Shown one piece after another: positions 26,537 through 26,954 of a DNA stretch of 35,836 bases. The DNA lies in IMG/VR virus record IMGVR_UViG_2645727821_000018, one strand, 5' to 3'. The DNA comes from a virus (Duplodnaviria > Heunggongvirae > Uroviricota > Caudoviricetes). Under the pieces are notes generated by a model. That model saw only the letters and a list, made by a program, of their open reading frames with translations. It ran no database searches and had not been told where the DNA came from. The number at the start of each line of letters is the position of its first letter. The first letter of the stretch is position 1. A program made the translations under genes and the position numbers.

Positions 26537-26805
26537 TGAAAGAGCTTGAGTTAAAGAAACCGATTACCGCTCATGGCGAGACACTCTCCGTACTGGAGTT
26601 TGATGAGCCCACCGGGAAAGATGTCCGCGAGCTGGGGTATCCCTACCAGATGAATCAGGATGAGTCCGTCAGACTTCTGGCGCATGTGGTATCGAAATAC
26701 ATTGTGCGGCTGGCGAAAGTGCCGCAAAACTCTGTCGACCAGATGTCTCCGGCAGACCTGAATGCTGCGGCGTGGCTTGTGGCTGGTTTTTTCCTCCAGG
26801 CCTGA
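26536..26805 (+). CDS. Tail assembly chaperone (G-like, short form)
   Basis: 89 aa upstream of the tape measure; contains a slippery heptamer near its 3' end. Confidence 0.7.
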   Translation: MKELELKKPITAHGETLSVLEFDEPTGKDVRELGYPYQMNQDESVRLLAHVVSKYIVRLAKVPQNSVDQMSPADLNAAAWLVAGFFLQA

Positions 26806-26954
26806 CGGCTGAATACCTCACTGATCGCTTCTTTGACTGCGCCAGCTACTGGCGCATTAATCCCTTCGAATTGCTGAATATGCCGATCAGTGAAATTCCC
26901 TTGCTGGTCAGTCAGGCAAACAGGATAGAGCAGGAGAAACGCACACATGGCTGA
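26772..26954 (+). CDS. Tail assembly chaperone frameshift extension (GT-like long form via -1 frameshift)
   Basis: ORF in the -1 frame overlapping the chaperone 3' end; entered from the slippery sequence T_TTT_TTC at 26787-26793; ends at the tape-measure start. Confidence 0.55.
   Translation: MACGWFFPPGLTAEYLTDRFFDCASYWRINPFELLNMPISEIPLLVSQANRIEQEKRTHG

Follow-up and report, generated by a model that had tools for sequence, protein, structure and literature searches.

The window analysed here, the whole 35,836-nt stretch of DNA, is an SfV/SfI/SfII-like E. coli prophage. Over the region compared (26180-27300) it is 100% identical to many E. coli chromosomes and 98% identical to phages SfV, SfI and SfII, and 1,090 of 5,426 complete E. 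coli genomes contain a match to this region. The tail genes follow the order sheath (PF04984), tube (PF10618), an 89-aa ORF (PF10109), an unannotated stretch of 141 nt, the tape-measure protein (TMP; PF10145), a DNA-circulation protein and a Mu gpP-like hub. The features of the locus are collected in Table 1, where the 0-frame product is called G, the segment read in the -1 frame T, and the predicted fusion of the two GT.

Table 1. Features at the tail assembly chaperone locus, with coordinates given as positions in the window.
Feature	Coordinates	Strand	Evidence
Tail tube gene, upstream neighbour	26180..26536	+	PF10618 Tail_tube, E=2.4e-33; RefSeq: phage tail tube protein
Chaperone G ORF, 0-frame product, 89 aa, P2 gpE equivalent	26536..26805	+	PF10109 Phage_TAC_7; phrog_166 'tail protein'
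Slippery heptamer T_TTT_TTC, X_XXY_YYZ phase	26787..26793	+	Phase check; conserved at homologous position
T segment, -1 frame after the predicted slip, 53 codons + TGA	26793..26954	+	Coding-type conservation; phrog_32181 match
Predicted GT fusion, 139 aa	26536..26954, join(26536..26793, 26793..26954)	+	Built from sequence
AGGAG Shine-Dalgarno of tape-measure gene, 10 nt 5' of its ATG	26932..26936	+	Read from sequence; partly conserved in alignment
Tape-measure gene (TMP)	26947..28782	+	PF10145, E=5e-27; RefSeq start at same ATG
GC-rich 8-bp hairpin UGCGCCAG-CUA-CUGGCGCA inside T	26838..26856	+	Invariant in clade; side feature

The 89-aa ORF occupies the expected place for a tail assembly chaperone pair, between the tube and tape-measure genes. 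Judged against the curated gathering threshold of PF10109 (Phage_TAC_7), a family whose members include P2 E, Mu gp41 and 'gp14', it scores 59.4 bits where the cut-off is 25, with residues 4-86 aligned to profile positions 2-78 of 79. Some 115 database homologues of G are 89-aa proteins annotated as 'phage tail assembly protein', and no relative with a solved structure was found.

The chaperone ORF ends with the codons ...GCT GGT TTT TTC CTC CAG GCC TGA. At the heptamer the 0-frame codons are GGT (26785-26787), TTT (26788-26790) and TTC (26791-26793), so the first T of TTTTTTC is the third base of its codon and the heptamer stands in the X_XXY_YYZ phase that tandem -1 slippage needs. From 26664 the -1 frame stays open until it meets a TGA at 26952-26954, a run of 55 codons from the heptamer on, and this TGA overlaps the TMP ATG at 26947 within the 8-nt sequence ATGGCTGA (26947-26954). 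Each of these observations bears out the initial annotation, which had described a chaperone ORF containing a correctly phased T_TTT_TTC and a -1 frame that stays open to 26954 and ends at the tape-measure start. A Mu-type -2 (or +1) shift would need the +1 frame to be open as far as the tape-measure gene; in the window this frame is closed, with an open stretch of only 10 codons (26861-26893). The junction of the predicted GT fusion reads ...VAGFF-PPGLTAEY..., and the junction peptide takes the forms AGFFPPGLTAEY and LVAGFFPPGLTAEYLTDR.

As an in-window control, we listed all in-phase X_XXY_YYZ heptamers (Y = A or T) in plus-strand ORFs of at least 80 aa. Of the 15, the site at 26787 is alone in being terminal in its ORF, at 18 nt from the stop, and in having a -1 frame that bridges to the next gene. 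Two others have a -1 frame that continues beyond the ORF end, and both were rejected because they fall in 4067-4312, the antisense shadow of a real minus-strand gene. A second in-phase U6N-type heptamer, T_TTT_TTG, is found at 23766-23772 within the ORF 23458-23964, where the -1 frame runs for 31 codons and stops inside the gene to give a truncated product; this occurrence is probably fortuitous.

We then compared the site with its relatives. Searching with tblastn for the G part and the T part separately reached diverged phages, and 12 phage loci and 13 genome loci were collected in all. Eleven phage loci were analysable (EPP-1, AH07, BgVeeders33, SfIV, ST64B, F1055, DVM-2008, phiP27, PG1, a Haematospirillum element and YeP1), as were 12 Enterobacterales genome loci from a genome scan with a 3-sequence alignment; a weak Omnitrophota match was left out. 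A scan of viral contigs yielded only copies that are 99-100% identical, and was therefore uninformative. The 23 loci span Enterobacterales to Burkholderia, Pseudomonas and one alphaproteobacterium, and identity of G to the window ranges from 32 to 98% over the 11 phage loci and from 32 to 99% over all 23. In the diverged phages the tblastn matches to G and to the T peptide adjoin and share 1 nt.

An in-phase T_TTT_TTC, T_TTT_TTT or T_TTT_TTG is present at the homologous ...FF position in all 23 other loci, and in P2 as well. In every one of the 23 the -1 frame is open from the heptamer to within a few bases of the TMP start, and the 8-nt overlap of stop and start codons with TMP recurs in P2 and in most relatives as it stands in the window. 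The 0-frame tail past the heptamer is unconserved across these loci, its length varying between 4 and 24 codons. Ahead of TTT the lineages differ in having a Gly, Arg, Asn, Ser or Pro codon, yet the third base of that codon is T throughout, and TTT rather than TTC is retained even where the hosts are GC-rich. In a colinear alignment of 15 unique sequences with a mean pairwise identity of 76%, positions 26785-26795 form one of the two longest invariant runs, against a background in which only 9-18% of third positions are invariant.

One exception was encountered. In Paraburkholderia phage IPK (PV588664, an UNVERIFIED record) the GFF motif is encoded by GGC TTC TTC, without a T-run, and the heptamer is therefore not absolutely universal. 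The IPK T domain is still found in the -1 frame, which has no more than 10 nt in common with the 0 frame (GAGGGCGCGTAA; locus positions 940-1000). This phage has either another shift site or an error in its UNVERIFIED record.

Protein-coding constraint acts on the 141-nt 'gap' after the chaperone ORF, and this holds for the -1 frame only. No stop codons occur in that frame across 26806-26946 in any of 12 unique sequences, while the other frames contain 1-6; its variability at the three successive codon positions is 0.60/0.36/0.85; and of its differing codons 51% are synonymous, compared with 9-10% in the other frames. The point at which this frame could be entered is narrowly bounded. In several relatives the -1 frame opens just 21-30 nt 5' of the heptamer, and the 0 frame of the window's clade is closed by a stop 18 nt from where the heptamer begins, so that the late opening of one frame and the early stop in the other confine the shift to an interval of about 45 nt. 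The T-run is the sole conserved slippery element within that interval.

The initial annotation had also pointed to a stimulatory structure at about 26800-26860, and on this point our analysis did not bear it out. In the window, shuffled sequences fold as well as the 64 nt that follow the heptamer (z=+0.36), and the corresponding result is non-significant in 10 of 11 lineages. A longer, 114-nt fold of the window does give z=-4.4, which is attributable to a distant hairpin and a long-range stem. RNAalifold, applied to 4 and then to 15 sequences, found no compensatory changes near the site. Of the individual candidates that we considered and rejected, a long-range helix between 26800-26806 and 26911-26917 is either invariant or broken and never covarying; a weak hairpin of 4 bp at 26799-26810 is disrupted in relatives; and a hairpin at a shared offset across lineages is contradicted by the strongest local hairpins, whose offsets lie anywhere between 6 and 137 nt. 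On the 5' side of the heptamer no hairpin is conserved (all |z|<2), nor is any Shine-Dalgarno (SD)-like motif. Frameshift sites of the dnaX, IS3 and IS911 type have a conserved structure 5-9 nt downstream and/or a conserved SD-like element 6-17 nt upstream, and neither arrangement was found here. A recurrent GGAGACGG / GGAGGAC motif, encoding G-D-G in the -1 frame, is seen 9-20 nt past the heptamer in SfIV, ST64B, phiP27, the Haematospirillum element and PG1. This motif is absent from the window's clade and may be constrained by protein only.

In a neutral E. coli reporter, U_UUU_UUC slips at 0.12% alone, at 0.9% with the IS911 stimulator and at 7.6% with the IS3 pseudoknot, while UUUUUUG slips at 0.12%, 0.25% and 0.77% in the same three settings, values from which the native efficiency is not predictable (Sharma et al., PMC4066793, Table S3). 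Given that the bare heptamer supports only about 0.1% slippage and that the family has no classical stimulator, an unconventional enhancer may operate. The only enhancer candidate in the window's clade is the hairpin at 26838-26856, a perfect 8-bp stem with a local dG of -13.7 kcal/mol. Among 15 sequences of 63-99% pairwise identity the hairpin is invariant bar loop base 26846, and none of the four degenerate third positions of the stem varies, where the background rate of invariance is 18%, although the significance of this becomes borderline once multiple testing is allowed for. No covariation was detected in the hairpin across the same 15 sequences, and the hairpin also encodes the most conserved motif of T, DCASYWRI. 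It is clade-specific, being absent from other lineages at the corresponding offset, and its start, 44 nt 3' of the heptamer, puts it out of range for a classical stimulator. We consider it unlikely that the hairpin acts on the frameshift or, alternatively, that it protects or regulates the 141-nt stretch of mRNA (with respect to Rho, RNase or tape-measure initiation), which under such a scheme would be left untranslated by more than 95% of ribosomes.

A homopolymer sequence alone cannot tell ribosomal from transcriptional slippage. If RNA polymerase were to add one U at the T-run, G and T would be brought into a single mRNA frame and an identical fusion protein would be made with no slip by the ribosome. 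In the SfIV, ST64B, phiP27 and YeP1 lineages the run is T7, which would favour such an event, but it is T6 in the window, and runs of T6-T7 fall short of the usual length; efficient slippage by bacterial RNA polymerase generally needs runs of about 8-9 or more. The run moreover always begins at codon position 3, as tandem tRNA slippage requires; the lack of a conserved hairpin upstream (see above), such as promotes slippage on short runs, argues in the same direction; and a terminator-like match at 26764-26783 is at chance level. Sharma et al. remark on a depletion of U7 and A7 in every frame, of which slippage is a possible cause (PMC4066793), but the homologous event in P2 is described as translational (RefSeq, PMC3091744). 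Taking these points together, we regard a transcriptional origin of the fusion as improbable.

It is very improbable that T is instead an independent small gene of 60 aa, occupying 26772-26954 and translated from its own GTG with no recoding. There is a GTG at 26772, this ORF is entered in the record ON470584 as a hypothetical protein of its own, and a PHROG family, phrog_32181, exists for it. However, the codon at 26772 is merely the first GTG in the -1 frame and is without an SD sequence, and conservation of the T peptide starts exactly at the slip site. Furthermore, 8 of 12 diverged loci lack any ATG, GTG or TTG in the -1 frame between the opening of that frame and a point 45 nt past the heptamer, which means that T cannot in general be reached by independent initiation; in AH07, for example, the frame opens 24 nt before the heptamer and offers no start codon. 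Finally, although an in-phase heptamer followed by an open frame is weak evidence in one sequence, such heptamers being common (the 15 noted above), the idea that both arose by chance and that the 141 nt are a non-coding spacer is effectively refuted by the retention of the heptamer in 23 other loci and P2, which excludes coincidence, and by the stop-free -1 frame in 12 of 12 sequences with its codon periodicity and 51% synonymous differences.

We conclude that the site is very probably a programmed -1 ribosomal frameshift of the P2 E/E+E' type. It is real and previously unannotated, and it is an ordinary example of a well-known kind. Points that weigh against this reading are the low slippage of the bare heptamer together with the lack of a conserved stimulator, the IPK exception, and the weak match of T on its own to P2 E'. 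From the homology with characterised systems, we infer that the slip is made by the ribosome, as well as its efficiency and the roles of both proteins; the two products at a fixed ratio that the initial annotation predicted would likewise follow from membership of the family. In the mechanism that we propose, most ribosomes would continue in the 0 frame through GGT TTT TTC CTC CAG GCC as far as the TGA at 26803-26805, and the 89-aa G would result. The remainder, a minority, would slip with tRNA-Phe in both the P site (on UUU) and the A site (on UUC), both tRNAs moving back by one base to re-pair with UUU UUU. Decoding would then restart at CCU (26793-26795) and continue for 53 codons, producing the 139-aa GT that ends over the TMP start. 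As homology with P2 and lambda suggests, the tape-measure protein would be coated by G and by the G portion of GT, and the rare T extension would bring in tube subunits, in which case the efficiency of recoding would set the G:GT ratio for tail assembly.

The fusion has escaped public annotation. Every record that we inspected (RefSeq E. coli, SfV, SfIV, ST64B, phiP27, AH07 and others) has a 'gap' of 84-148 nt at this position or a separate hypothetical protein, and a joined CDS for G/T appears in none of them. In E. coli ATCC 11775 the RefSeq locus tags skip the number RS06965 exactly at the gap. The phrog_32181 family, described as of 'unknown function' and represented by a 63-position profile, matches the T ORF with E=4e-40, so it appears to gather -1 extensions of this chaperone that were wrongly called as independent genes. 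The 139-aa GT is absent from a collection of 5.8 billion proteins, in which matches are essentially to the 89-aa G only; three full-length database singletons were considered as annotated fusions and rejected, their junctions being scrambled and their assemblies noisy and indel-rich. A search of the literature on SfV plus frameshifting returned nothing relevant. Read as a P2-type frameshift, the site gives a function to phrog_32181 and supplies a missing essential tail protein for SfV-like phages and related Pseudomonas tailocins. Its value lies mainly in annotation, in a prophage family that is very common, and it leaves our understanding of recoding unchanged.

Tail assembly chaperone pairs made by programmed frameshifting, among them lambda G/GT and P2 E/E+E', are a well-known class, reportedly described by Xu, Hendrix and Duda in 2004. 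The initial annotation had compared the site with the conserved G/GT mechanism. The general assignment is supported by the conservation of the site, the coding constraint on the -1 frame and the alignment with P2 E+E', but the closest precedent is P2, and neither lambda G/GT nor Mu gp41. The P2 RefSeq record lists two products related by a -1 frameshift, E of 91 aa and E+E' of 142 aa, sizes close in kind to the 89 and 139 aa predicted for the window. The P2 slip sequence GTC GGT TTT TTG (...VVGFL) is in phase and lies 27 nt from the E stop, and E+E' ends 7 nt beyond the tape-measure ATG. Both loci place an in-phase U6N heptamer encoding ...GF(F/L) between tube and tape-measure genes, with an 8-nt overlap between the fusion stop and the ATG, and in both P2 E and the window's G the slip site is where the PF10109 match stops, in profile column 78 of 79. 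They differ in the seventh base of the heptamer (C in the window, G in P2), in the length of the 0-frame tail (4 codons in the window, 7 in P2) and in the surrounding tail genes, which in the window are Mu/SfV-like and not P2-like. The shift in P2 occurs at TTTTTTG, where there is no downstream structure (PMC3091744), and no obvious downstream structure is seen in either locus.

At the level of the proteins, BLASTP of the fusion against P2 E+E' is not significant (E=0.54), and profile comparison was therefore needed. A profile built from 11 predicted fusions aligns with P2 E+E' over 122 columns (hhalign probability 91%, E=9e-7), placing VAGFF over VVGFL. T alone aligns with P2 E' in the same register, but this match is weak (hhalign E=0.002, probability 12%) and T has no match to the Pfam family PF06528 (Phage_P2_GpE), so that homology between T and E' is suggestive only. 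In P2 (locus positions 2166-2174) we also noted an SD-like UAAGGUGGU that ends 4 nt (CGGU) before the T_TTT_TTG at 2179 and is without counterpart in the window or in most relatives. The spacing of SD-like elements that is optimal for -1 stimulation is 10-14 nt, and the P2 UAAGGUGGU is closer than this.

The likeness to lambda is one of arrangement. In both lambda and the window a chaperone ORF with a -1 extension stands between the major tail and tape-measure genes. The lambda heptamer, G_GGA_AAG, and the tRNAs that slip on it differ from those of T_TTT_TTC, and the lambda tail is that of a siphovirus whereas the window encodes a contractile tail. We detected no sequence similarity to lambda G/GT, PF10109 being the only family match. 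In lambda, the G/GT mechanism yields two products in a set ratio of 30:1, neither of which is found in the virion, and the efficiency in P2 is 2- to 3-fold higher (PMC5009743). A shared N-terminus, a fixed low ratio, a need for both proteins in tail formation and their absence from the virion are features known for lambda and P2 only (PMC5009743, PMC3091744), and they would extend to the window by analogy.

The comparison with Mu runs the other way. The sheath, tube, tape-measure, DNA-circulation and gpP genes of Mu are homologous to those in the window. The Mu chaperone gp41 has 144 aa and a family of its own, PF23746, and scores 24.7 bits on PF10109, just below the cut-off. A -2 frameshift has been reported for gp41 (PMC2628397, PMC5009743). 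Consistent with this, in Mu (NC_000929, locus positions 4450-4632) the gap can be read through in the +1 frame alone, the -1 frame being closed; the overlap contains GGGGGCGA. Here too the joined chaperone product is unannotated in RefSeq. In the window the situation is reversed, with the -1 frame open and the +1 frame closed, giving opposite directions of shift in a homologous tail module. A Mu-like tail module can thus carry a chaperone frameshift of the P2 type (-1, U6N) instead of the Mu type (-2).
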